Translations under genes and position numbers: made by a program
Origin: an uncultured Chloroflexia bacterium
GTDB taxonomy: Bacteria; Chloroflexota; Dehalococcoidia; DSTF01; JALHUB01
DNA length: 10,565 nt
Direction of reading: 5' to 3'
NCBI GenBank assembly: GCA_963726245.1
Contig: CAVSBT010000033.1
Span: 1 to 10,565 of the forward strand
Notes under the pieces: model-generated
Told to the model about the DNA's origin: nothing
Databases searched by the model: none
Seen by the model: only the letters and a program-made list of their open reading frames with translations
In this document: positions 1-10,565 of the stretch, in pieces
Layout of the letters: every line of letters starts with the position of its first letter
How positions within the stretch are numbered: position 1 is the first letter of the stretch

Positions 1-1115
1 CGCCCGGCTTCTTCCAGCAGCGTTACGCCCAGCATGACGCCGGACTGGCCGACAGCGCCTGGAGAGGCGGCAGCAGGTCTGGGGCCGGGTAGGCGTCCAG
101 GTACCGGACCGGCGTGGCTGGGAAGAGCAGCAGGTCGGTGTCCTGGCGGCGCAGCGTCTCCACCCAGCGCCGGGCATCCTCGAGGAAGGCGGCGCCGGTC
201 GGCGGCAGGGTCGCCTGGAGCACCGCCAGGCGCCGGCTGCCGGGCCCAACGGCCAGCGGCTCCTCCGGCAGGCGGGCCGCCGGCAGCTCCTCGGTGGGGG
301 CCGTCAGGGCTGAGTAGAGGGCGGGGCGGCGGGCGAAGGGCGGGCCGGTCGCCTCCGCGGGGTCCAGGTCGAAGGTGAGGACGGTCTCCTCCTCCGTCCC
401 GGCCGAGGCCAGCGTCCGGCCCCTGGGGTCGATGACGCAGGAGCGGCCGCAGTAGACGATGCTGCCCGCCTCGATCCCCACCTTGCCCGCTGCCACCACC
501 CAGACCCCGTTCTCCAGGGCGCGGGCCGACATCATGTACTCGGGTTGAGGGTTGGAGAGCTCGCCCGGCTGGCGGCCCCAGCTCACCCAGGCCGTCGAGT
601 CGACGATGACCTGGGCGCCGCCCAGGGCCGAGGCAGCGGGCTATCTCGGGCAGGCGGCCGTCGGCGCAGATGAGGAGGCCCAGCCGACCCAGGGGCGTCT
701 CGAACACCGGGTAGTGGGCGCCGCCCCGGAACCAGCGGCGGTCGAAGTGCCAGAGGAAGCTCTTGTCGTAGCGCCCGGCCAGGCTGCCGTCGGGCGCGAA
801 GAGGAGGGCGGAGTTGGCCACCTCCCCCTCGTCTGACGGGAAGGCGACGCCCACCGCCAGGTAGACGCCGTGCTGGGCGGCCTTGCCCCCGAAGGTGCGA
901 AGGAGGCCGTCGGCGTCCAGAGGCTCGGGCGCGGCGGTACTCCTCCCGAGAGCGCAGGAAGTAGGCGGGGTAGGTGACCTCGGGCAGGACGATGAGGTCG
1001 GCTCGCTCCGCCGCCGCCCGGTCCACCATCTCCAGGGTGTGGCGCAGGCCTTCGGCCGCCTCCTCCAAGTCGAAGGCGCGGAGCTGGACGAGGGCTAGAC
1101 GCGCACCAAGCTCAC
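1..1115 (-). CDS. Carbon-nitrogen hydrolase (nitrilase family), two-domain; frameshifted and truncated at the left window edge
   Basis: Stitching frames gives RLALVQLRAF...ADLIVLPEVTYPAY (catalytic Glu), AGRYDKSFLWHFD (Lys), GLLICADGRLPEIAR (Cys), then ARALENGVWVVAAGKVG and YCGRSCVIDPRG. A second unit starts at RRLAVLQ...DLLLFPA and continues as SGVMLGVTLLEEAG off the edge. The start is probably the GTG at 1115, directly after the upstream TAG, but it is uncertain because of an indel near 1100. Confidence 0.85.
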
Positions 1116-2468
1116 CTACCGAGTTTCACCTGCGCGCATCGCCGAAGCCGAGACGCCAACGGTCGAGTTGATGATACGGATGGCGGCACGCGTAACAGGA
1201 ACCAGGCTTGGTCGATGGATTTTGTCCAGTGTATCCATCGCGTCGAACAGGTAGAACGGCGCAACCAAGGTAGTTCACGATAGGGACGCCTGCGGGGTAG
1301 AAGTTCGCTGCATCCGTTGTCGGCTTCTCTCTGAAAGCCGTTGGCGGCAGGATGTATGAACGTCGCAGGTCTTCAGCCTCGATTGCTTCTCGCACCGCAG
1401 CTTCCAGGCGCGGGATGCGCGACGTGAACCACCAACGTGTTTCTGGCCGTCCGGTCGGATGCAGCTCGCCGCCCACTTCCGACACCTCGCTGTGCGGCAT
1501 GTTCAAGGTGCACCTCTAACACCACGTGGTCGAGTTCGGCACGATGAGATAGTACGAAGTCTGCCTGCCCGGCGCCTCCCGACATGTGTCCTCCGTTGAG
1601 GAGGAACATGAGGCGGTGCGGACGCTCCGCCGGCGGGACGCGCGACCAATAGGCGGCCTGGGCCAGCACCAGCGCGATTCCCGAGCCGTCCTCGACCGCC
1701 GACGCCCACGGGCCGTCGTGGTGCGATCCAACGATCACTGCCTCATGGTCTGCTCCGGCAGCTCGCCAACGATGTTGAATGAGGTGATTGATGCTCGGCG
1801 AGCGTCGACCTCGAGCCTGACTACGACGGGACCCTCGTCGAGCCAGGACTTCAGTCGTTCTCCATCGCCCCCGCTGATCCAGACGCCCGGGATTGGGCGC
1901 GGGTTTCCCATCGTAGGGCACGTAGTATTCACGCGAGTTCCCTGGGTAGCCGGTAAGGACGCCGACAAACCCGCAAGCGCCGGCGGCTATCGCTGACTCC
2001 ATCGCTGCCTGGCCGGCCCGAGTGGCCGGGAGAAGCTGGCTGGCCGCCGCGAACGACCCATCGGGGTCGAACTGCCACGTGGCGACGCGTTGGTACCAGC
2101 TATGAGGCACCCGCAAGAGCGGGAGCTCGCAAAGGGCGATGGCGCCCGTGCACGGCACCGCCGTCGAGCGCAACCAGGGTGGCTTCAAGGTGGTTCGGCG
2201 AACAGAACGGAAGGGCGAAGCAAGGGATCTCGGCCTCGGTACCATCGGCCCTCACGGCCACCAAGGACGAGTGAAGCGGTTCCCAGTAGGGCGTGACCAC
2301 GGGCTCCGCACGGACGCTCTCGAGTCCGAACTCGCGAAACCGGTCCTGTATCCACTGCTCTGCCCATCGATCGGCGGGATAGCCCGGACGCCGCACGCCC
2401 TGCCGGAAGACTTCTTCGATCCAGTTGTAGATCTGGTCCTCCGCCGGAACCATGTCTTCGCGTAGCAC
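1116..2468 (-). CDS. PA-domain / M28 family peptidase-like protein (multiple frameshifts)
   Basis: GTG at 2468 with GGAGGAG RBS at 2475-2481. Pieces across frames: RRPGYPADRWAEQWIQDRFREFGL; PIPGVWISGGDGERLKSWL (PA-domain end); SFNIVGELP; IVGSHHDGPWASAVEDGSG; TDAANFYPAGVP; YLFDAMDTLDKI; ends ...AMRAGETR-TAG at 1116-1118. Confidence 0.75.
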
Positions 2469-2471
2469 TTC

Positions 2472-3259
2472 TTACTCCTCCCCCCGCACACGGTTTCGCA
2501 GCACACCGATACCCTCGATCTCCACCTCCACCACGTCGCCGGGCGCGCAGGGTAGGGGTGGTGCCAGGGGTGCCGGTGAAGACGAGGTCGCCCGGCTCCA
2601 GGGTCATCACGCGGCTGGCGAAGCTGATGATGTGCGCCACGTCGTGGATGAGAAGGCGGGTGCTGCCCCTCTGCTTCACCTCGCCGTTGACGCGCGTCTG
2701 GAGGTCGAGGTTCCGCCGGGTCCAGCTCATCGACGATGCACGGCCCCACGGGCGCGAAGGTGTCGCTGGACTTGGCGCGCCACCACTGGATGTCGCCCCG
2801 CTGCCACTCGCGGGCGCTGACGTCGTTGCCGCAGGTGTAGCCCAGGACGCAGCCCAGCGCCTCGTCCGGCGAGAGGCCGCGCGCCCGTCGTCCGATGACG
2901 GCCACCAGCTCGCCCTCGGCGTCGACGCGTCCAGCGCCAGCAGGGATGACGATCGCCTCCTCCGGCCCGACGACGGCGGAAGGGGTCTTCAGGAACAGCT
3001 CGGGGGCGCTGGGCGGCTCCCGGTCTCGCTCCCCAGAGATGAACCCGCCGCCGGTGGGAAGGTGGTCCATGTAGTTCAGGGCCACGGCGATGATCTTCGA
3101 CGGCCGGACGGGCGCCAGCAGGGTCACCTCTGCCAGGGGCAGCCGGACGCCCGTGGGCCGCCGCTCCCCGAAGAGGTCCCCCTCGAAGGGGAGGACGGCG
3201 TCGCCCTCCAGGAGGCCGCAGGACTCGCCTCCCTGGTGGAGGAAGCGGACGTACTTCAT
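2472..3259 (-). CDS. Fumarylacetoacetate hydrolase (FAH) family protein (frameshifted near 2720 and 2545)
   Basis: ATG at 3259 (MKYVRF) with GGAG upstream. Motifs PSKIIAVALNYMDH, LFLK, DAEGELVAVIG, GYTCGNDVSARE, AKSSDTFAPVGP, TLEPGDLVFTGTPG, PGDVVEVEIEGIGVLRN; TAA at 2472-2474. Confidence 0.92.
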
Positions 3260-3270
3260 CGTCTGTCTCC

Positions 3271-4675
3271 CTACGGCGGCAGCGCGCGTCGGGCCGCCTC
3301 GGTCAGGGCCTCCGACAGCGACGGGTGCCAGTGGACGGTGGCTGCCAGGTCGTAGACAGTGGCCTCCAGGCGCATGGCCAGCACCGCCTGCCCGATGAGC
3401 TCGCTGGCCTGAGGCCCCAGGATGTGCACGCCCAGGATCTCGCCTGTGCGGGCGTCGGCCACCAGCTTGACGACTCCCTCCGGCTGGCCCAGGGCGGCAG
3501 CGCGCGCGTTGGCCGAGAGGTCGGCCAGGCCCACGCGCACCTCGTCGCCCAGCGGCCCGCGCCTCCTCGTCGCTGAGGCCGACGGCGGCGTACTCGGGGT
3601 GGGTGTGTATGCAGCGGGGCACGGCCCGCAGGTCCAGACGGCTCTTCTGGCCGAGGGCGTTCTCGGCGGCGACGCGGCCCTCGTGGATGGCGGCGTGGGA
3701 GAGCATGATGCCCCCTATGGCGTCGCCGGCGCCGTAGAGGCCGGAGACGCTGGTGGCGCCGCCGCCATCGACGGCCAAAGCGCCGTTTTCACTGAGTCGG
3801 ACGCCCAGGGCCTCCAGGCCCAGCCCTTCCAGGTAGGGTACACGGCAGTCGGGCGCCACCACGGCGGCGGCCGGGACGGCGGTATCGCCCGCGGGTGTCG
3901 AGAGCAGGGCACGCCGCTCGCCATCCTCCTCGTCGAAGCCCTTCACCTGCGCCCCGGTTAGCACCCGCAGTCCTGCCGTCTCCAGCGACTGGGCCAGGTA
4001 GCCGGCCAGGTCGCCGTCCTCGCCGGGCAGGATGTGGGGGCCCGCCTCCGCCAGCGTCACGCGACTGCCAAAGGCGGTGAAGAGGAAGGCATACTCCAGG
4101 GCGAAGACCAGGCCGGCGGGCCCGCCGCCCAGCACCAGCAGCGAGGGCGGCGGCTCGGGCAGGGCCAGGGTCTGGTCGCTGGTGAGGACGCCGTCCGGCG
4201 GCAGCCCCGGCAGCGGCGGCGGCACGCCCCGGGCGCCGGTGGCGACGATGACGGCGCCAGCCGAGATCTCCTCGGCGCCGCCCTCGGCGAGCTGCACCGC
4301 CACCCGCAGGCCGGGCGCCTGCCCAGGCGCGAACTGCGCCCGACCGGCTATGTAGCGGACGCGGCGCGAGGCCAGCAGGTTACGGATGCCGGTCGCCACC
4401 CCGCCAGCAAGGCGCGCCTGTCGCGCCAGGGCGCGACTGAAGCTGGGCTCGCCCGTCGAGGGGAGGACGCCCTGGAGGCCCAGCGCCTGGGATTCCAGGG
4501 CGGCGCGCACGGTATCGAGGAGGATGTTGCTGGGGACGCAGTTGAAGCGGACGCAGTTGCCGCCGGCGCTCTGGTGCTCCACCACCGCTACGCCGGCGCC
4601 CAGTTCGGCAGCGCGCAGGGCCGCCGAGTAGCCGGCCGGCCCGCTGCCGATCACTACCAGGTCGAAATCGGGCAT
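3271..4675 (-). CDS. lpdA: Dihydrolipoamide dehydrogenase-like flavoprotein (E3), frameshift near 3550
   Basis: ATG at 4675. FAD motif DLVVIGSGPAGYSAA, redox pair CVRFNC, IVATG, TSVSGLYGAGD, interface domain GEILGVHILG...ASELI and C-terminal HPSLSE. Lies downstream of E1/E2. Confidence 0.88.
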
Positions 4676-4696
4676 ATCGCCCTTCCCTCGTTGACC

Positions 4697-4815
4697 GTAG
4701 GGGCGACCTTTAGGTCGCCACGAGCGTATCCCAACGCTGCGCAGCCGTAAGGACGGAGCTGAAGCTCCGTCCGCGAGGTCGCTAAAACCGGACAGAGCTA
4801 AAGCTCTGTCCCTAC
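4697..4815. repeat. Cluster of three REP-like palindromes, the outer two GTAG-tagged and inverted (REPIN/BIME-like)
   Basis: GTAG-g-GGCGACCT-tt-AGGTCGCC (4697-4719); GGACGGAGCT-ga-AGCTCCGTCC (4751-4772); GGACAGAGCT-aa-AGCTCTGTCC-CTAC (4790-4815). Sits in the E2-E3 spacer. Confidence 0.8.
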
Positions 4816-4827
4816 GGCCCCTAACGA

Positions 4828-6100
4828 TCACTCCTCCGTCACGAGCAGGTCAGGATGCTCCAGATAGTGCTTGACGCGACGCAGGAAGTCGGCGGCGGGG
4901 GCCCCGTCCACCACCCGATGGTCGAAGGAGAGGCTGAGGTTGAGGACGGAGCGCCGCACCACCCGGTCGCCTCTCCGCCGGAGGCGGACTCGCCCAGAGG
5001 GGCCGCTGGCCGCCTCTGGCGAGGAACGCGGGCACCTCCTTCACCCGGCCCACGCCCAGGATGGCGCACTGGGGCGGGTTGACGATGGGCGTGAAGACAT
5101 CGACGTCGTACATGCCGAGGGTCGTAACGGTGAAGGTGCCGCCCGTCACCTCGTCGACGGTGAGGGTGCCCTGGCGCGCCTTCTCGGAGAGCTCCCGCGC
5201 CTCGACGGCGATCTGGCGCAGCGGCTTGCGGTCGGCCTCCCGCACCACCGGCACGATGAGCCCTTCGTCCAGGGCGACGGCCACGCCCACGTTGACCTCG
5301 TCCAGCAGGCGGATGACGTCGCCCTCGAGAGTGGAGTTCAGGCGCGGGTGCTCGGCCAGGGCCAGGGCCGCCGCCTTGACGATGGCATGGGTGTAGGTGA
5401 CGCTCACGCCCCCGCCCGGCTCTGCCTGCCAGCGCTCGCTGAGCTCCTGGCACATGCGCCCGGCCTCCGTCACGTCCACCTCCATGGTGATCGTGAGCTG
5501 GGCCATCGTCTGGAGGCTCTCGTGCATGCGCTGGCCGATGGTGCGACGCACGCCCTTGAAGGGGATGGTGCGACCAGCAGGCGGCGCGGCAGGAGCCAGC
5601 GCCTCCCGGCGGGCGGCGATGGCGCGCTCCACGTCCTCCTGGAGGATGCGGCCGCCGGGGCCCGTGCCCTCCACCTGCGACAGGTCGATGCCCGCCTCCT
5701 CGGCCAGTCGGCGGGCCAGGGGCGAGGCCCGCACGAACTCGCCCGTCTCGCGGGCGGTCGGAGCGCCGCGGCCCGCGCCGGAGGCGGCGGGCGCCGGGGC
5801 TGCTGCCGCGGGCGCTGCCGCGCGCCGGCGGCCATCTCGACCAGCTCAGAGGGAAGCTCCTCGCCCTGGGCGAGGATGCAGCCCACGACGGCGCCGGCGG
5901 GCACGGTGGTGTCCTCGGGCACGCAGGTGGCGGAGGACGCCGGAGGCCTCCGCCTCCACCTCGGCGTTGATCTTCTCGGTGAGCATGCGGAAGATGGGCT
6001 GCCCCTTCTCGACGGGGGCGCCGTCGGGCACCAGCCACTGGGCCAGCGTGCCCTCGGTCATGGTCATGCCCATCTTGGGGAGGACGACGATGGTGGGCAT
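4828..6100 (-). CDS. acoC: Dihydrolipoamide acyltransferase (E2) with one lipoyl domain, several frameshifts
   Basis: ATG at 6100: MPTIVVLPKMGMTMTEG...LTEKINAEVEA (lipoyl Lys about 5972-5974); E3-binding RASPLARRLAEEAGIDLSQVEGTGPGGRI; GGTFTVTTLG, FTPIVNPPQCAILGVG, LSLSFDHRVVDGA; ends HPDLLVTEE-TGA at 4828-4830. Symbol assigned by operon type; the substrate is unproven. Confidence 0.9.
4974..5023. repeat. Palindromic insertion inside the E2 coding sequence
   Basis: Two hairpins: TCCGCC-gga-GGCGGA (4974-4988) and CTCGCCCAGAGG-GGCC-gct-GGCC-G-CCTCTGGCGAG (4989-5023). They separate EVPAF from GDRVVRRSVL, which are normally near-contiguous in E2. Confidence 0.65.
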
Positions 6101-6104
6101 GGTG

Positions 6105-7092
6105 CTACGCCCGCGCCGGCACCACGTTGAGCACGGCGTCCACGATGTTCTGGGCGTTGGGGAGCCAGGCGTCCTCCAGCACCGGGCTGAAGGGCACCGG
6201 CGTGAAGGGCGCCCCGATGCGCTGCGGCGGCGCGTCCAGGTAGTCGAAGGCCTGCTCCGCGATCTGGGCGGCGATCTCCGCGCCGATGCCCCCAAAGCGC
6301 ACCGCCTCGTGGGCTATCACCACCCGGTGCGTCCGCCGCACCGAGTCCAGGATGAGCCCCATGTCCAGGGGCTGGAGGGTGCGCGGGTCGATGACCTCGG
6401 CGTCGATGCCCTGCTCGGCCAGCTTGTCGGCGGCCTTCAGGGCCTCCCACACCATGGCCGAGGTGGCGACAATGGTGACGTCCTTGCCGGGCCGCTTCAC
6501 CTGGGCGACGCCCAGGGGCACCTCGTAGGGCTCCTCGGGCACGTCCTCGCGCTGTCCGTAGAGCTCGCTTGTGCTCCAGGAAGAAGACCGGGTTGTCGTC
6601 GCGGATGGAGGCTATGAGGAGGCCCTTGGCGTCGTAGGCGGAGGAGGGCATCACCACCTTGAGGCCGGGGATGTGGCAGAGGAGGGCCTCCAGGCTCTGG
6701 GAGTGCTGGGCGGCCACCCGGATGCCGGCGCCGCAGGTGGTGCGCACGACGATGGGCAGCCTGGCCTTGCCGCCGAACATGTACTTCATCTTCGCCATCT
6801 GGTTCATGATCTGGTCCATGGCGATGCCGATGAAGTCCATGAACATGAGCTCGACCACGGGGCGCAGACCGCAGGCGGCGGAGCCCACGGCCAGGCCGAT
6901 GATGCCCGCCTCCGAGATGGGCGTGTCCACCACGCGCCGCTCGCCGTACTTGGCGTAGAGGCCGGCGGTGATGCGGAAGGCGCCCTGGTGCTGGCCCACG
7001 TCCACGCCGGCGACGAAGACGTTGGGGTCGCGCTCCATCTCCTGGTGTAGCGCCTCGTTGACGGCCTGCATGTAGAAGAGCTCACGGGTCAT
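6105..7092 (-). CDS. acoB: TPP-dependent 2-oxoacid/acetoin dehydrogenase E1 beta subunit (frameshift near 6550-6570)
   Basis: ATG at 7092 with AGGAG at 7099-7103. Motifs RVVDTPISEAGIIG, GLRPVVELMFMDF, AAQHSQSLEA, DDNPVFFLEHK, EVIDPRTLQPLD, FDYLDAPPQRIG; TAG at 6105-6107. Confidence 0.93.
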
Positions 7093-7112
7093 GGCGCGCT
7101 CCTGGGGCATCG

Positions 7113-7176
7113 CTGTTCCAATGTTCGACTGTTCCACTGTTCGCGAACAATAGAGCACTGGAACAATGGAGCAAGG
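7113..7176. repeat. Tandem-inverted array of degenerate 8-mers
   Basis: ctgttcca-atgttcga-ctgttcca-ctgttc|gc|gaacaata-gagcactg-gaacaatg-gagcaagg: four TGTTC units followed by four GA(A/G)CA units, centred on the perfect palindrome TGTTCGCGAACA (7138-7149). Confidence 0.8.
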
Positions 7177-7270
7177 CGGAATTCCTTGTAGGTGGAGAGC
7201 ACCAGGTGGTACGCGTAGGGTCCTGTGTAGTCGAAGGTGGCGAGACGTGGTGCGAGTTTGCGGCGATAAG

Positions 7271-7297
7271 GGGGCGGACCTAAAGGTTCGCCCCTAC
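7271..7297 (-). repeat. GTAG-tagged REP-like palindrome
   Basis: The minus strand reads GTAG-GGGCGAACCT-tt-AGGTCCGCCCC, closely matching GTAGGGGCGACCTTTAGGTCGCC at 4697-4719. Sits in the E1-alpha/E1-beta spacer. Confidence 0.78.
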
Positions 7298-7337
7298 GGC
7301 TGGGTGTGCTGCTGGCACTCAGACTCGCGGCCTGGTA

Positions 7338-8302
7338 CTACGTGTACACATCCTTCGTCAGGTCCTCGACGCTCGGCGGGGGGCTCTCCTCGCCGAACTT
7401 GATGGCCTCCTCGATCTGCGAGCGCACCTCGGCGATGACGGCCTCCGCTTCCTTCTCGGACAGGACGCCGTCGGCGGCCAGGCGCTGCCGGAAGAGGAGG
7501 ATGGGGTCGCGGGAGTGCCAGTGCTCGCGCTCCTCCGCCGGCCGCTCCTCCTCGCCGTAGCTGGTGCCCACGTGGTCGTAGTAGCGATAGGTCTTGCACT
7601 CCAGCGAGCGAGGGCCCTTCGCCCCGGCGCGCTCGCGCCACGGCCTCGCCCGACGGCGTCGTAGACGGCCAGCACGTCCATGCCGTCGACGCTGCGGCCG
7701 GGCATGCCGTAGGCGGCCGCCCGGTCGGCGATGTCGACGACGGCCATCTCGCGCTCCTGGCGGGTGTACTCGCCGTAGAGGTTGTTCTCGTAGACGAAGA
7801 CCAGGGGCAGGCGGTAGAGGGCCGCCATGTTGGTCGCCTCGTGGACGGGCCCGATGTTGCTGGCGCCGTCGCCCAGGAAGCAGAGGCAGACCTGGCCCCG
7901 GCCCCGGTACTTGCCGGCGAAGGCGGCCCCCACGGCAATGGGAGCGCCGCCGCCGACGATGCCGTTGGCCCCCAGGATGCCCAGGTCCAGGTCGGCGATG
8001 TGCATGGAGCCGCCCTTGCCTTTGCAGTAGCCCGTCGCGCGGCCGAAGAGCTCGGCGTACATGAGACGGATGTCGCCGCCCTTGGCGATGACATGGCCGT
8101 GGCCGCGGTGGGTGCTGGTGATGTAGTCGTCACGGTTGAGGTGGGCGCAGGCGCCGACGGCTACCGCCTCCTCGCCGGCGTAGAGGTGGACGACGCCGGG
8201 GATGCGGGCCTCCTGCGAGAGGCGTCCGGCCCCGTCTTCGAACTCGCGGATGGTGACCATGGTGCGGAACATCTGGAGGAGCTTGTCCCTGGCGATCTCC
8301 AC
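7338..8302 (-). CDS. acoA: TPP-dependent 2-oxoacid/acetoin dehydrogenase E1 alpha subunit (frameshifts near 7650 and 7605)
   Basis: GTG at 8302 with AGGAGG at 8309-8314. Motifs HLYAGEEAVAVG, STHRGHGH, CKGKGGSMHIAD, TPP motif GDGASN...YENN, ARRGEGPSL, ECKTYRYYDH, RDPI; ends KDVYT-TAG at 7338-7340. Confidence 0.93.
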
Positions 8303-8341
8303 GGTGGTCCTCCTGGACGTGCGAATCGAGCGGCAAGAGAA

Positions 8342-8370
8342 ATGATAAGGGCGGGCAGAGTGAGCGTCAA
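8342..8370 (-). promoter_or_regulatory. Sigma70-type promoter of the dehydrogenase operon
   Basis: Minus strand TTGACG (8370-8365), 17-bp spacer, TATCAT (8347-8342), 40 nt upstream of the E1-alpha start. Confidence 0.75.
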
Positions 8371-8453
8371 CGCAGGGGGAGAGAACCAGGAACAGGGAAC
8401 CGGAGGCTCGACCCTGACCCGGGCCTGGGGAGAACACCCTGGCTGGAGGCGGC

Positions 8454-9209
8454 CTACCGGAACATCACGACGCGGCGGAAGCGCTCCAGGTAGCGGCCGG
8501 ACTCGTCCCGCCAGCGCTCCTTGACGAACTGGAGGAACTCGGCGCCGTCGCCGAACTGGGTCTTGTGCTCCAACAGGGCCTGGATCTTCAGGTCGACGAT
8601 GTCCGTGATGTCGACGCAGAAGTTGCCCTTGTCGAAGCTCCAGATGTAGATCTCCTTGACGTTGTGGGGCTCCAGGCCCTCCTCCAGGTGCTCCGGGAAG
8701 TTCCAGCGGTCGCGGGCGGCGGGATAGACGGCGTCGATGGCCACGAGCCCGGCGCAGCGGTGGTCGGAATGGTTCACGAAGCTGTCGCGAACGATGATGG
8801 ACTCCGGGTCGCTTGTGAAGACGGCGTAGGGGCGGATGAGGCGGATATGGCGCACGACGTCGCCCAGCAGCTTCCGGGTGTAGGTCAGCTCGCCGTCCAC
8901 GTAGTCGAGGAAGAAGACGTCCTTCACGCCTAGCCTGCGGGCCGCCGCCCGCTGCTCTTCCTGGCGCAAGGGCGCCAGGCGCTCGGGCGTCATCGCCGGG
9001 TCGGCGCTGCCCTTGTTGCCGTTGGTGCAGACCAGGTAGTAGAACTCCCACCCCTGGCGCGACCAGAGGGCGGCGGTGCCGCCGCAGCCGAACTCGGAGT
9101 CGTCCGGGTGGGCGGCGACGACCAGGGCGCGCTTCACCTCATGTCCCTCGCTCGTCTCGGTGCTTGTCTCCGGCACTGCGAGGCCTTCCAGGCTCGATGT
9201 TCTCTCCAT
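8454..9209 (-). CDS. PIG-L/LmbE family Zn-dependent N-deacetylase
   Basis: Intact 251-aa ORF with LVVAAHPDDSEFGCGGT, TNGNKG, RQEEQRAAARRLGV, NHSDH, VDIT...KIQALLEHKTQ; purine-rich RBS (GAGGGGGAG) upstream of the ATG. Confidence 0.93.
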   Translation of the reverse strand: MERTSSLEGLAVPETSTETSEGHEVKRALVVAAHPDDSEFGCGGTAALWSRQGWEFYYLVCTNGNKGSADPAMTPERLAPLRQEEQRAAARRLGVKDVFFLDYVDGELTYTRKLLGDVVRHIRLIRPYAVFTSDPESIIVRDSFVNHSDHRCAGLVAIDAVYPAARDRWNFPEHLEEGLEPHNVKEIYIWSFDKGNFCVDITDIVDLKIQALLEHKTQFGDGAEFLQFVKERWRDESGRYLERFRRVVMFR

Positions 9210-9279
9210 CTCTCCCCCTCAAGTGCTCAAGGCGCCCTTTCGGGCGCCCGCTCCCTCCCAGGATTCGCTACTACTATCT

Positions 9280-9309
9280 ATTGTAGGGGTCGGCCTGGCT
9301 CCGGGGCAA
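9280..9309 (-). promoter_or_regulatory. Putative sigma70-type promoter for the PIG-L gene
   Basis: Minus strand TTGCCC (9309-9304), 18-bp spacer, TACAAT (9285-9280), followed by an AT-rich tract. Confidence 0.55.
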
Positions 9310-9340
9310 CGGCGGCGATTCGCGCTCGAAGACCCGCAGC

Positions 9341-9520
9341 GATCCCGTAGGAGACATCGATCTGGCGCTGGGTTCGAGGGTTTGAAGGACAGCGCAGACT
9401 GGCCCGGCGGCCTGAGGGAGCCAGCGGGTGGCGCGCAGCCGTCCTTCGCTCGCGAGGAACCGAGGGGTCTGGCTCAAGCTGCGGGCGTCTGTTCGCCCAG
9501 AAGTCCACCCCTGTGGGCTC
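9341..9520. ncRNA. Candidate ~180-nt rod-like structured RNA or non-autonomous element (family unassigned)
   Basis: Nested complementary segments: GATCCCGTAGG/CCTGTGGGCTC at the termini, TCTGGCG/CGCCCAGA, GAAGGAC/GTCCTTC, GCGC/GCGC, CTGGC/GCCAG. No convincing ORF overlaps it. Confidence 0.4.
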
Positions 9521-9550
9521 GAGGAATATGAGCGCCGACGACGCCACGAA

Positions 9551-10150
9551 CTACGGTAGCTGCATGACCCGATCGAGCACGGGGGGCATCGTCCTGGTGA
9601 TGTCGACCGTTCCACCAATGGGGGCTTGGAGTTCCAAGGTCCACCGAGAGTTTGGCCCGATGCTCGGCGGGCCTGTTGCGCTGTCGACATCTGCCAGCCT
9701 TATGGTCAACTGAGCGGTCTCGCCCGGCGCAAGGAGACCGTCGCCGTTGCCGACGATCTCCACGGCCGTATACGGGACATCGGCATCGTATGCTCCGCTG
9801 TCACAGTAGCTGACGACAAGCCGGCCAGTCGTCGAAGTGCCATCCAGCGGTACCGGGTCGCCCGCCCCGCTGGTTCCGACGATGACCTGGATCCTGTCGA
9901 CTGCCAGAGGTTGACCGCTCGCAACGACGATAACAGAGCCACGAACCTCCAATGTCCCGCTGACCCGGCCGAGGCTGGCACGAAAGACCTGATCCAACTG
10001 GTCGGCACCAAGTTCTCCACTCGTGATGGCCACGGTGCCAACAACAAGCGCGGTCCCCAGCAGGCAAACGAGTGCGAGGCCCATGCCGGCCTGACCACTC
10101 TCGCTGGCTGCTGAGAAAAGAAGGCGGAAGAGACTACGTAGGCGTGCCAT
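9551..10150 (-). CDS. arlB: Archaellin-like protein (archaeal flagellin ArlB/FlaB family, type IV pilin superfamily)
   Basis: Intact 199 aa. Basic leader, G|Q putative class III cleavage site and hydrophobic helix; ...SLGRVSGTLEVRGSVI; GDPVPL...LVVSYCD; GNGDGLLAPGETAQLTI; IGPNSRWTLELQAPIGGTVDITRTMP...VMQL. This motif order follows archaellins (LE.kGsV; .dgdlLe.GE; pn..ftlev.pp.Ga.l.i.RT.P). Confidence 0.8.
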   Translation of the reverse strand: MARLRSLFRLLFSAASESGQAGMGLALVCLLGTALVVGTVAITSGELGADQLDQVFRASLGRVSGTLEVRGSVIVVASGQPLAVDRIQVIVGTSGAGDPVPLDGTSTTGRLVVSYCDSGAYDADVPYTAVEIVGNGDGLLAPGETAQLTIRLADVDSATGPPSIGPNSRWTLELQAPIGGTVDITRTMPPVLDRVMQLP

Positions 10151-10203
10151 TGCCTTGAAGGGCGGCGGGGCAACACCTGCGGCATCCTTGCCTCGAATAA
10201 GAC

Positions 10204-10230
10204 AAGCCGGCAGTCCACTGCTGCCGGTTT
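10204..10230 (-). terminator. Terminator-like hairpin upstream of the archaellin start
   Basis: CCGGCAG (10207-10213), 7-nt loop, CTGCCGG (10221-10227); followed on the minus strand by CUUGUCUUAUU. Confidence 0.45.
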
Positions 10231-10353
10231 CACCACTGGCCTGCCCTATGACGGGAGGCTTCGGGGCGTTCGGTGACCAGACTGAGCGCCCTCCGCGAGC
10301 GCTTACCCCGAAGCGGCCTCAACAGTCCGCGCTTGGGAAACGTCGTTTCGCTT

Positions 10354-10565
10354 CTACCAGGGATAACGCCGCTTCAGTCTTCCCGTTACACACACGGCGT
10401 TTGGCGGGGGAGCCTCGTCGCCGTGCGGAGGGCGAGTCCGGTTCTCTGCCAACCGAGCCAAGGTTCCACGAGGGAGAAGGAGCTCGAACGCCGCGGGAGG
10501 GACTTCACTGTCAGGTACCTGGGGCCGCGCGGCCCAATTCACCACCATACGCCGGAAAGCCGCTT
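10354..10565 (-). CDS. Possible 3' end of an unidentified gene entering from the right edge
   Basis: The frame is open from the window edge (AAFRRMVVNWAARP...) to TAG at 10354-10356. No recognisable motif. Confidence 0.3.
   Translation of the reverse strand, partial: AAFRRMVVNWAARPQVPDSEVPPAAFELLLPRGTLARLAENRTRPPHGDEAPPPNAVCVTGRLKRRYPW

Follow-up and report, generated by a model that had tools for sequence, protein, structure and literature searches.

A divergent archaellin gene behind a probable c-di-GMP-II-type riboswitch in a Chloroflexota genome

Known archaella and riboswitch-controlled filament genes

That archaella of bacteria are functional was not demonstrated until 2025. In archaea, minor archaellins are known from Methanococcus (the hook-region archaellin) and from Haloferax, with their genes in or next to the arl operon; we know of no RNA switch that acts on them. 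This study concerns an archaellin gene of 199 codons plus stop on the minus strand of a 10,565-bp contig (C33; the entire contig was analyzed and is referred to as the window), together with the structured RNA in its leader. The host, represented by a metagenome-assembled genome (MAG), is a soil or sediment Chloroflexota bacterium with Dehalococcoidia-type relatives. The gene and its relatives form a subgroup, for which the name class B was coined in the present analysis. Like the archaeal minor archaellins, class B is a second, less conserved type beside the major subunits of one machine; on the other hand, class B genes are dispersed from the arl locus and preceded by a (putative) riboswitch. 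We consider it fairly probable that a c-di-GMP (cyclic di-GMP) 'on' switch controls here an accessory or alternative subunit of the archaellum family.

The nearest regulatory parallel is in Clostridioides difficile, in which Bordeleau et al. (2015, J Bacteriol 197:819) reportedly described a c-di-GMP riboswitch in front of pilA1, a type IV pilin gene; the riboswitch is said to be a class II 'on' switch acting via a terminator. A c-di-GMP-type riboswitch would precede the gene for a type IV filament subunit of a monoderm bacterium in both cases, whereas the product in the window is an archaellin of archaeal origin and not a bacterial pilin.

The nearest structural parallel is ArlB from Litorilinea aerophila (PDB 9i5h). 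The main text of PMC12488501 gives archaella in 243 of 3,780 Chloroflexota genomes and describes motility and the filament structure for L. aerophila; the rarity implied by an earlier reading of the window from its sequence (the original prediction) was not supported. The window protein and L. aerophila ArlB had the same fold, domain order, and host phylum, and the metal ligands D127 and E134 were kept. In spite of these similarities, the window protein was only 23% identical, did not match TIGR02537, had a helix shorter by 2 residues without Glu at +5, and lacked two of the four metal ligands, and its gene was located outside the arl locus, behind a (putative) riboswitch.

A bacterial archaellin as such is already known. 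What seems to be new is the combination: a subgroup of archaellins outside the canonical type, with genes away from the arl locus and behind a structurally distinct RNA of the c-di-GMP-II clan that was missed by the Rfam models. A literature search on archaellum/c-di-GMP/riboswitch, on c-di-GMP-II in Chloroflexota, and on c-di-GMP-II-GAG gave, among the records listed, no title or abstract describing this combination, and the words 'riboswitch' and 'c-di-GMP' were absent from the main texts of PMC12488501 and of a second paper on the Chloroflexota archaellum. That the leader is a probable riboswitch variant of this clan with a terminator had escaped the original prediction, and this is the more novel part of the locus.

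The class B archaellin and the arl locus

The open reading frame (ORF) named in the original prediction was recovered intact, and its assignment to the archaellin family was confirmed. Pfam PF01917 (Arch_flagellin) aligned residues 34-185 with profile positions 18-161 of 162 (E 9e-6, 26.6 bits), the best sequence match among solved structures was PDB 9i5h_C, nearly end to end (phmmer; E 2.7e-11), and the two ArlB proteins encoded on contig C9 of the same genome were both 42% identical to the window protein (BLASTP; E about 1e-39). With the same Pfam profile, a paralogue on contig C26 scored 40.5 bits, which passes the cut-off, and the two C9 ArlBs scored 76.8 and 86.6 bits. The structural check proposed with the original prediction gave the same answer: the AlphaFold2 (AF2) model, built on a 54-sequence alignment, had a mean predicted local distance difference test (pLDDT) score of 91.5, with a helix at residues 19-64 and strands at residues 66-198 (block pLDDT 86-98). 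The first Foldseek match against PDB was the bacterial archaellum of L. aerophila (9i5h_C; E 1.8e-12; template-modelling (TM) scores 0.67/0.72; identity as given above), and the top 15 among the matches listed were all archaellum filaments, the stator proteins FlaF/FlaG (ArlF/ArlG) appearing only at E about 1e-4. By these results, the window protein is a member of the archaellin family, with the predicted layout of a type IV filament subunit: a leader ending at Gly19, a hydrophobic helix, and an archaellin beta-sandwich.

Identity as a stator protein was considered separately and rejected, the BLASTP E values being 29 to the ArlG and 0.003 to the ArlF of contig C9, compared with about 1e-39 to the ArlBs.

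The acidic loop named in the original prediction (residues 134-144) did align with the metal-site stretch of L. aerophila archaellin, whose ligands are given in the main text of PMC12488501 as D121, D127, E131, and E134. D137 of the window protein fell on D127 and E144 on E134, so that two of the four ligand residues were kept. At position 141, Glu was conserved in at least 90% of a 22-sequence alignment (A2, consisting of proteins of the same genome and of loci from MAGs), and was Ala in the window protein. An exhaustive search of representative proteins returned 237 at E<=1e-3 and just 7 at E<=1e-30, and a word-index search returned 11 proteins, all from contigs of 1.2-3.4 kb; 8 of the 11 had 63-96% identity.

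The main departure from canonical archaellins was found at the N-terminus. Apart from the window protein and the paralogue on C26, A2 had 20 rows, of which 19 (both C9 ArlBs and 17 MAG ArlBs, L050 included) shared one near-identical N-terminus, reading I-T-G-L-E-T-A-I-I-L-I-A-F-V-V-V-A after the conserved Gly. The window protein and the C26 paralogue instead had S-E-S-G followed by Q-(A/I)-G-x-G-L-A, with a helix 2 residues shorter and no Glu at +5. The protein of a further locus, L048, was intermediate: it was outside the near-identical group, but retained Arg at -2 and Glu at +5. Gly19 was conserved in at least 90% of the sequences in A2, in the broader 54-sequence alignment A3, and in A9; when a 2-residue shift was allowed, it aligned, as read by eye, with the Gly preceding the mature N-terminus of canonical ArlB. 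This conservation fits a prepilin-peptidase site, at which the leader would be cleaved. TIGR02537, the archaellin/pilin N-terminal model, matched 13 of the 54 members of A3 and, at 27.9 bits, both C9 ArlBs, but not the window protein (P0001). Judged by these alignments, the archaellins of these Chloroflexota are of two types, canonical and divergent. The main text of PMC12488501 contained no description of class B that we could find, and the terms 'minor' and 'ArlB2' were absent from it. As a side observation, the archaellin match of L050 (8001-8607) lost its frame half-way, which points to an assembly frameshift.

At L048, the class B gene preceded a same-strand arlB-x-arlG-arlF-arlH locus by approximately 4 kb, separated from it by DUF922, an ORF without known identity, and an M23 peptidase; this proximity ties the class B subgroup to the archaellum.

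The genome of the window has an archaellum locus of its own. Contig C9 carried, on one strand, arlB-arlB-x-arlG-arlF-arlH-arlI-arlJ followed by a 177-aa ORF and an M23 peptidase, with 'x' being a 236-aa ORF without family. ArlH (279 bits) and ArlI (642 bits) were both above their NCBIfam cut-offs, and ArlJ matched at E 3e-134; the arlG-like and arlF-like genes were weak matches. The order arlG-arlF is the arl2 arrangement given for Chloroflexota in the main text of PMC12488501. In total, six Arch_flagellin matches (the window gene included) and three matches to Peptidase_A24 (prepilin peptidase) were found in the genome. The C26 paralogue, 69% identical to the window protein, also stood alone, between a tyrosine recombinase and a PCMT methyltransferase. 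The description of the gene as solitary, with no arl genes following it, was thus correct for contig C33 and wrong for the genome, and its orphan status was refuted by the arl2-type locus, the C26 paralogue, and the three peptidases of the same MAG. Since the gene lies so close to the end of the contig (415 bp), the statement that nothing follows it says little in any case. Dispersal from the machinery genes, on the other hand, was borne out. A minor or alternative filament subunit, as originally proposed, is still the best functional guess.

Two observations on the arl loci may be recorded here. An M23 peptidase after a small family-less ORF adjoined the arl locus in both genomes (L011 14432-16201, corresponding to C9, and L048 4687-7484), and this peptidase, with DUF922 in L048, may assist the bacterial archaellum by remodelling the cell wall. 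Between the two canonical arlB genes of C9 there was a gap of approximately 770 nt (L011 7161-7931), in which neither the leader model R1 described below nor Rfam gave a meaningful match.

The leader RNA, its terminator and its kin

The original prediction had noted that the gene has its own leader. This was right, and the leader was found to be a conserved structured RNA. Over approximately 250 nt upstream of the gene, the window and C26 were 81% identical (BLAST), compared with about 74% for the coding sequences, and indels in the alignment disrupted any reading frame. Of the 93 genomes in the host's order, 19 gave weaker BLAST matches to the leader. In an alignment of 15 such sequences, variable hairpins were flanked by the invariant blocks UGGUCACC and GCCAGUGGUGAAACCGG. 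From the raw MAFFT alignment, RNAalifold recovered only the invariant helix; the other helices were assigned manually, and their pairs were counted afterwards. In the MAFFT alignment, 89.5% of the cells were paired (90.7% including P1), compared with 28-46% when the partners were slid, and 13 of 27 pairs had changed on both sides, a number reached by none of 500 shuffles. The outer helix P1 (CUGUUG with CAGCAG) was 95% paired on a longer MAFFT alignment. A pseudoknot that the invariant blocks could form was 98.5% paired, with 8 of its 9 pairs never varying in the 15 sequences. A covariance model built from the leader (R1) had matches in 33 of the 93 genomes of the order, including 17/17 of the window's own family. 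In the 35-sequence alignment (A8), which was fitted to R1 and therefore favours the structure, 89.9% of the cells were paired (24-49% when slid) and 15 of 18 pairs had changed on both sides. In the consensus of the GAG variant in Rfam and in the copy on contig C30 of the same genome, GCC/GGC stood where the others have ACC/GGU, a matched change in the pseudoknot as read by eye.

A search for a tRNA, a tmRNA, or a known RNA family at this contig end found none. A leader specific for archaellin genes was also considered and rejected: the RNA was present in four genomes without a P0001 match (G075, G082, G083, and G090), and before unrelated genes.

Kinship to known riboswitches was indicated by sibling copies. 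Four other R1 matches reached RF03169 (c-di-GMP-II-GAG) with 54.2, 50.2, 46.7, and 44.6 bits (cut-off, 40), the last being the C30 copy of the same genome; one R1 match hit RF01786 (c-di-GMP-II) at 40.3 bits, and the G075 copy had 23.8 bits in Rfam at the exact site. The architecture was also that of clan CL00127: P1, a short GGC/GCC helix, a long hairpin with the 5' pseudoknot strand in its loop, and then a 3' tail, in which the 3' pseudoknot strand reads GGUGAAACCG; the associated genes, furthermore, are surface and matrix genes. The window type differed from the clan in an extra hairpin just before GCCAGUGG, which had letters in 17-18 of the 35 A8 sequences. In the 3' tail, the window type reads GUGAAACCG, compared with GUGCAACCG in RF01786 and GCGAGACCG in RF03169; all 15 seed sequences had GGUGAA(A/C)CCG, and departed from the 3'-tail consensus of Rfam. 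By these sequence features, the leader RNA is classed here as a divergent branch of clan CL00127, kin of c-di-GMP-II-GAG and c-di-GMP-II. Its ligand is probably, not certainly, c-di-GMP.

Directly after the aptamer, a terminator-like hairpin of 7 pairs, 6 of them G-C, was found. In our own mapping, its 5' arm holds the last bases of the 3' strand of the pseudoknot as well as the 3' strand of P1, and because of this overlap the bound aptamer should block the terminator and allow read-through; the anatomy of the leader thus indicates that it should be an 'on' switch. In the mechanism that we favor, transcription of the class B gene would run through the aptamer and then the intrinsic terminator; the ligand-bound aptamer would block the terminator, and the class B gene would be read ('on'). 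The product would most likely be cut by a PilD-type peptidase and passed on to the ArlHIJ machine, in which it would serve as an accessory or alternative subunit at high levels of the second messenger. The genome had 20 GGDEF matches.

An ordinary, redundant archaellin paralogue (an alternative major subunit serving, e.g., surface variation), behind an RNA that senses a signal other than c-di-GMP or binds a protein, would be quite an improbable explanation. Multiple arlB copies are common in Chloroflexota according to the main text of PMC12488501, and the RNA departs from the Rfam consensus at the 'GCA'/'GAG' triplet. A conserved 12-nt box after the terminator, GGCAAGGAUGCC, would fit a protein-binding leader, as would two CsrA homologues in the genome (C38:47916-48062 and C17:179972-180127). 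On the other hand, a redundant copy is at odds with an N-terminus that departs from an otherwise nearly invariant motif, and another ligand is at odds with sibling RNAs of the same genome and order that pass the RF03169 threshold. The surface and matrix genes associated with the RNA also fit c-di-GMP regulons. As for the box, we take it to resemble the binding consensus of CsrA.

The stretch upstream of the aptamer (window 10330-10400, minus strand; L012 at approximately 5490-5555) was also conserved between the two copies, with a CGUUU motif recurring in other genomes, and may be the promoter region; a simple sigma-70 scan did not flag 10330-10400. The sigma70 promoters of the original prediction did not stand up in the same kind of scan: the sole promoter-like site within 9000-10565 was 9309..9280 on the minus strand, downstream of the archaellin gene.

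Table 1. Features of the class B locus in the window
Feature	Coordinates	Strand	Basis
Aptamer, divergent variant of the c-di-GMP-II clan (putative), with extra hairpin and invariant pseudoknot	10220..10325	-	R1 95.8 bits, covariation, Rfam matches of siblings
Intrinsic-terminator-like hairpin (10227..10207) with U-rich tail	10197..10227	-	Terminator scan; conserved in window, C26, and L105
12-nt box GGCAAGGAUGCC between terminator and start codon	10181..10192	-	Conserved in most of the 15 A6 rows; with changes in L105
Class B archaellin gene, 199 aa plus stop	9551..10150	-	Intact ORF, Pfam, PDB match, AF2, Foldseek
Putative class III (prepilin-type) leader peptide, residues 1-19, ending at Gly19	10094..10150	-	Conserved Gly; cleavage predicted
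Hydrophobic N-terminal helix (residues 20-64), divergent compared with canonical ArlB	9959..10093	-	AF2 and alignments
Archaellin beta-sandwich globular domain, residues 66-198	9557..9955	-	AF2 strands, Foldseek
GNGDGLLAPGE loop, residues 134-144	9719..9751	-	Aligned to the metal-binding loop of archaellin 9i5h_C

Linkage, gene contexts and significance

Three DNA loci had the order aptamer-terminator-class B gene. These were the window, in which the aptamer ended 69 nt before the ATG, C26, and metagenome contig L105 (R1 92 bits, 72 nt before a 69%-identical homologue). By eye, the over-long ORF calls of two more homologues, P0004 and P0008, contain this leader in translation. A narrow class B alignment scanned against metagenomes returned a single locus. 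In the scan of contig C9, the canonical arlB genes gave no R1 match and only chance-level Rfam rows.

The total number of R1 matches was 49; for 11 of them the gene context was inspected manually, and all 11 were envelope or secreted functions. In other genomes, the RNA preceded two Bac_transf sugar transferase genes and two WecG/TagA glycosyltransferase genes with Wzz-like genes after them, as well as genes for a metzincin-like protein (weak Reprolysin_4 match) and for the same HExxH protein as on contig C17. A long-hairpin form of the RNA was located before this secreted HExxH protein, which belongs to no Pfam family, at C17:68664-68810 (L103 3165-3311, minus strand) and at L086 1501-1612; the downstream gene in this type of context was read in the present genome (G000) and G050, and all 17 other genomes of the family had at least one R1 match. 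In G000, the HExxH gene was followed, by eye, by a gene for a CAP-like protein. The C30 copy that passed RF03169 (C30:109245-109342; L104 2746-2843, minus strand) preceded two tandem surface-protein genes without Pfam family, whose products shared an N-terminal signal ending A-F-x-A-F-E-S-H followed by long Pro/Thr-rich stretches; we presume this signal to be similar to those of the SipW type.

These contexts bear on a second explanation, in which class B belongs to a fibre of its own that is adhesive and does not rotate, is assembled by a different type IV filament machine of the genome, and is switched on together with matrix genes. Archaellin-like, non-motile fibres are known in archaea (Iho670 of Ignicoccus). 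There were five more T2SSE matches in the genome, four of which exceeded the cut-off, and six more for T2SSF, i.e., additional ATPases and platform proteins, with two ATPase-peptidase pairs on C17 and C29; the core-forming N-terminal helix differs strongly from that of canonical ArlB; and the RNA switch is common to the class B gene and to exopolysaccharide, protease-like, and surface-protein genes, and not to the C9 arlB genes. However, the class B gene of L048 has an arl locus beside it, the best matches in both structure and sequence are true archaellins, and neither class B copy had another filament machine next to it. We regard an adhesive fibre as unlikely, and retain the accessory or alternative archaellum subunit under a c-di-GMP 'on' switch as the preferred explanation.

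The possibility that C33 is a contaminant or a chimera, its archaellin gene not coming from the organism with the C9 arl locus, was considered on the basis of the assembly. The MAG comprises 2.68 Mb in 46 contigs with 82.8% completeness; its contamination is 6.28%, C33 is just 10.5 kb, and many ORFs of the window look frameshifted. In spite of this, a 69%-identical paralogue with the same RNA leader is located on the 39-kb contig C26, further R1 copies are on C17 and C30, and all 21 related loci in the species-genome collection are from MAGs titled Dehalococcoidia or 'Chloroflexia'. Furthermore, two 1383-nt contigs from two sediment-metagenome runs each covered 9400-10565 whole, with 27-29 substitutions and 0 gaps, their start codon being GTG instead of ATG in the same frame; contigs from runs X1 and X5 covered the stretch only in pieces. 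Contamination is a most improbable explanation.

The neighbours of the gene were bacterial, as originally described: a PIG-L deacetylase and pyruvate-dehydrogenase-type ORFs (named by eye). Nearly every housekeeping gene in window 1-8437 on the minus strand (e.g., 2252-4831, 4850-6295, 6064-7158, and 7338-8437) was split over at least two frames, namely, by eye, nitrilase-like, lipoamide dehydrogenase, E2, E1-beta, and E1-alpha of 2-oxoacid dehydrogenase, which suggests single-base indel errors in the assembly. Neither bacterial flagellin nor FliW was found in this 83%-complete MAG.

Several results weigh against the explanation that we prefer. On the protein side, the PF01917 score of 26.6 bits is below the cut-off of 29.5, and an NCBIfam search with the window protein gave no match at E<=10, TIGR02537 included. 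Two of the four metal ligands are lost, with A141 in place of E131 and with D121 falling in a 5-residue stretch absent from the window protein. The putative cleavage site has Ser and not Lys/Arg at -2 and no Glu at +5, and processing of the leader is therefore putative. On the RNA side, the pseudoknot has no internal covariation support, being invariant within the set, and the folding energies of the leader were no better than those of shuffles (z -0.8 and -0.6). The window copy had no Rfam match (at gathering thresholds for the window, and at E<=10 for 10050-10565), and neither did the C26 and L105 copies at E<=10. In addition to its extra hairpin, the window type lacks the consensus 'UGA' after the short helix, and the archaellin-linked copies have 'GAA' compared with 'GCA' in c-di-GMP-II and 'GAG' in the GAG variant; because of these differences, the ligand may not be c-di-GMP. 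The L048 class B gene had no R1 match, and six of ten other genomes checked had both archaellin and R1 matches that were never adjacent by coordinates, the same-genus G039 included; linkage between the RNA and archaellin genes is therefore patchy. The MAG itself is only 83% complete and is 6.3% contaminated, and C33 is short.

A bolder possibility, which we put forward as doubtful, is that, after transfer of the archaellum from Archaea into Chloroflexota, a duplicated archaellin lost the canonical core helix and came under a new riboswitch subclass derived from c-di-GMP-II (extra hairpin, 'GAA' tail). Class B would then be a second-messenger-induced part that caps, stalls, or replaces the rotating filament, which would thereby become an attachment fibre under common control with the genes for exopolysaccharide and protease. 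In that case, no earlier example would exist of an archaellum-family machine controlled by a second messenger.

A passage of PMC10249747 states that c-di-GMP was not detected in archaea. On the regulation of archaella by bacteria, nothing was found in print. If the preferred explanation is true, an archaeal machine would be wired, via an RNA switch, into a typical bacterial motile-to-sessile signal, and the locus, a 130-nt RNA and a 199-aa protein, would be a small and concrete test object. At the level of families, the current Rfam models miss a branch of the c-di-GMP-II clan that differs in structure and is common in one order of Chloroflexota.

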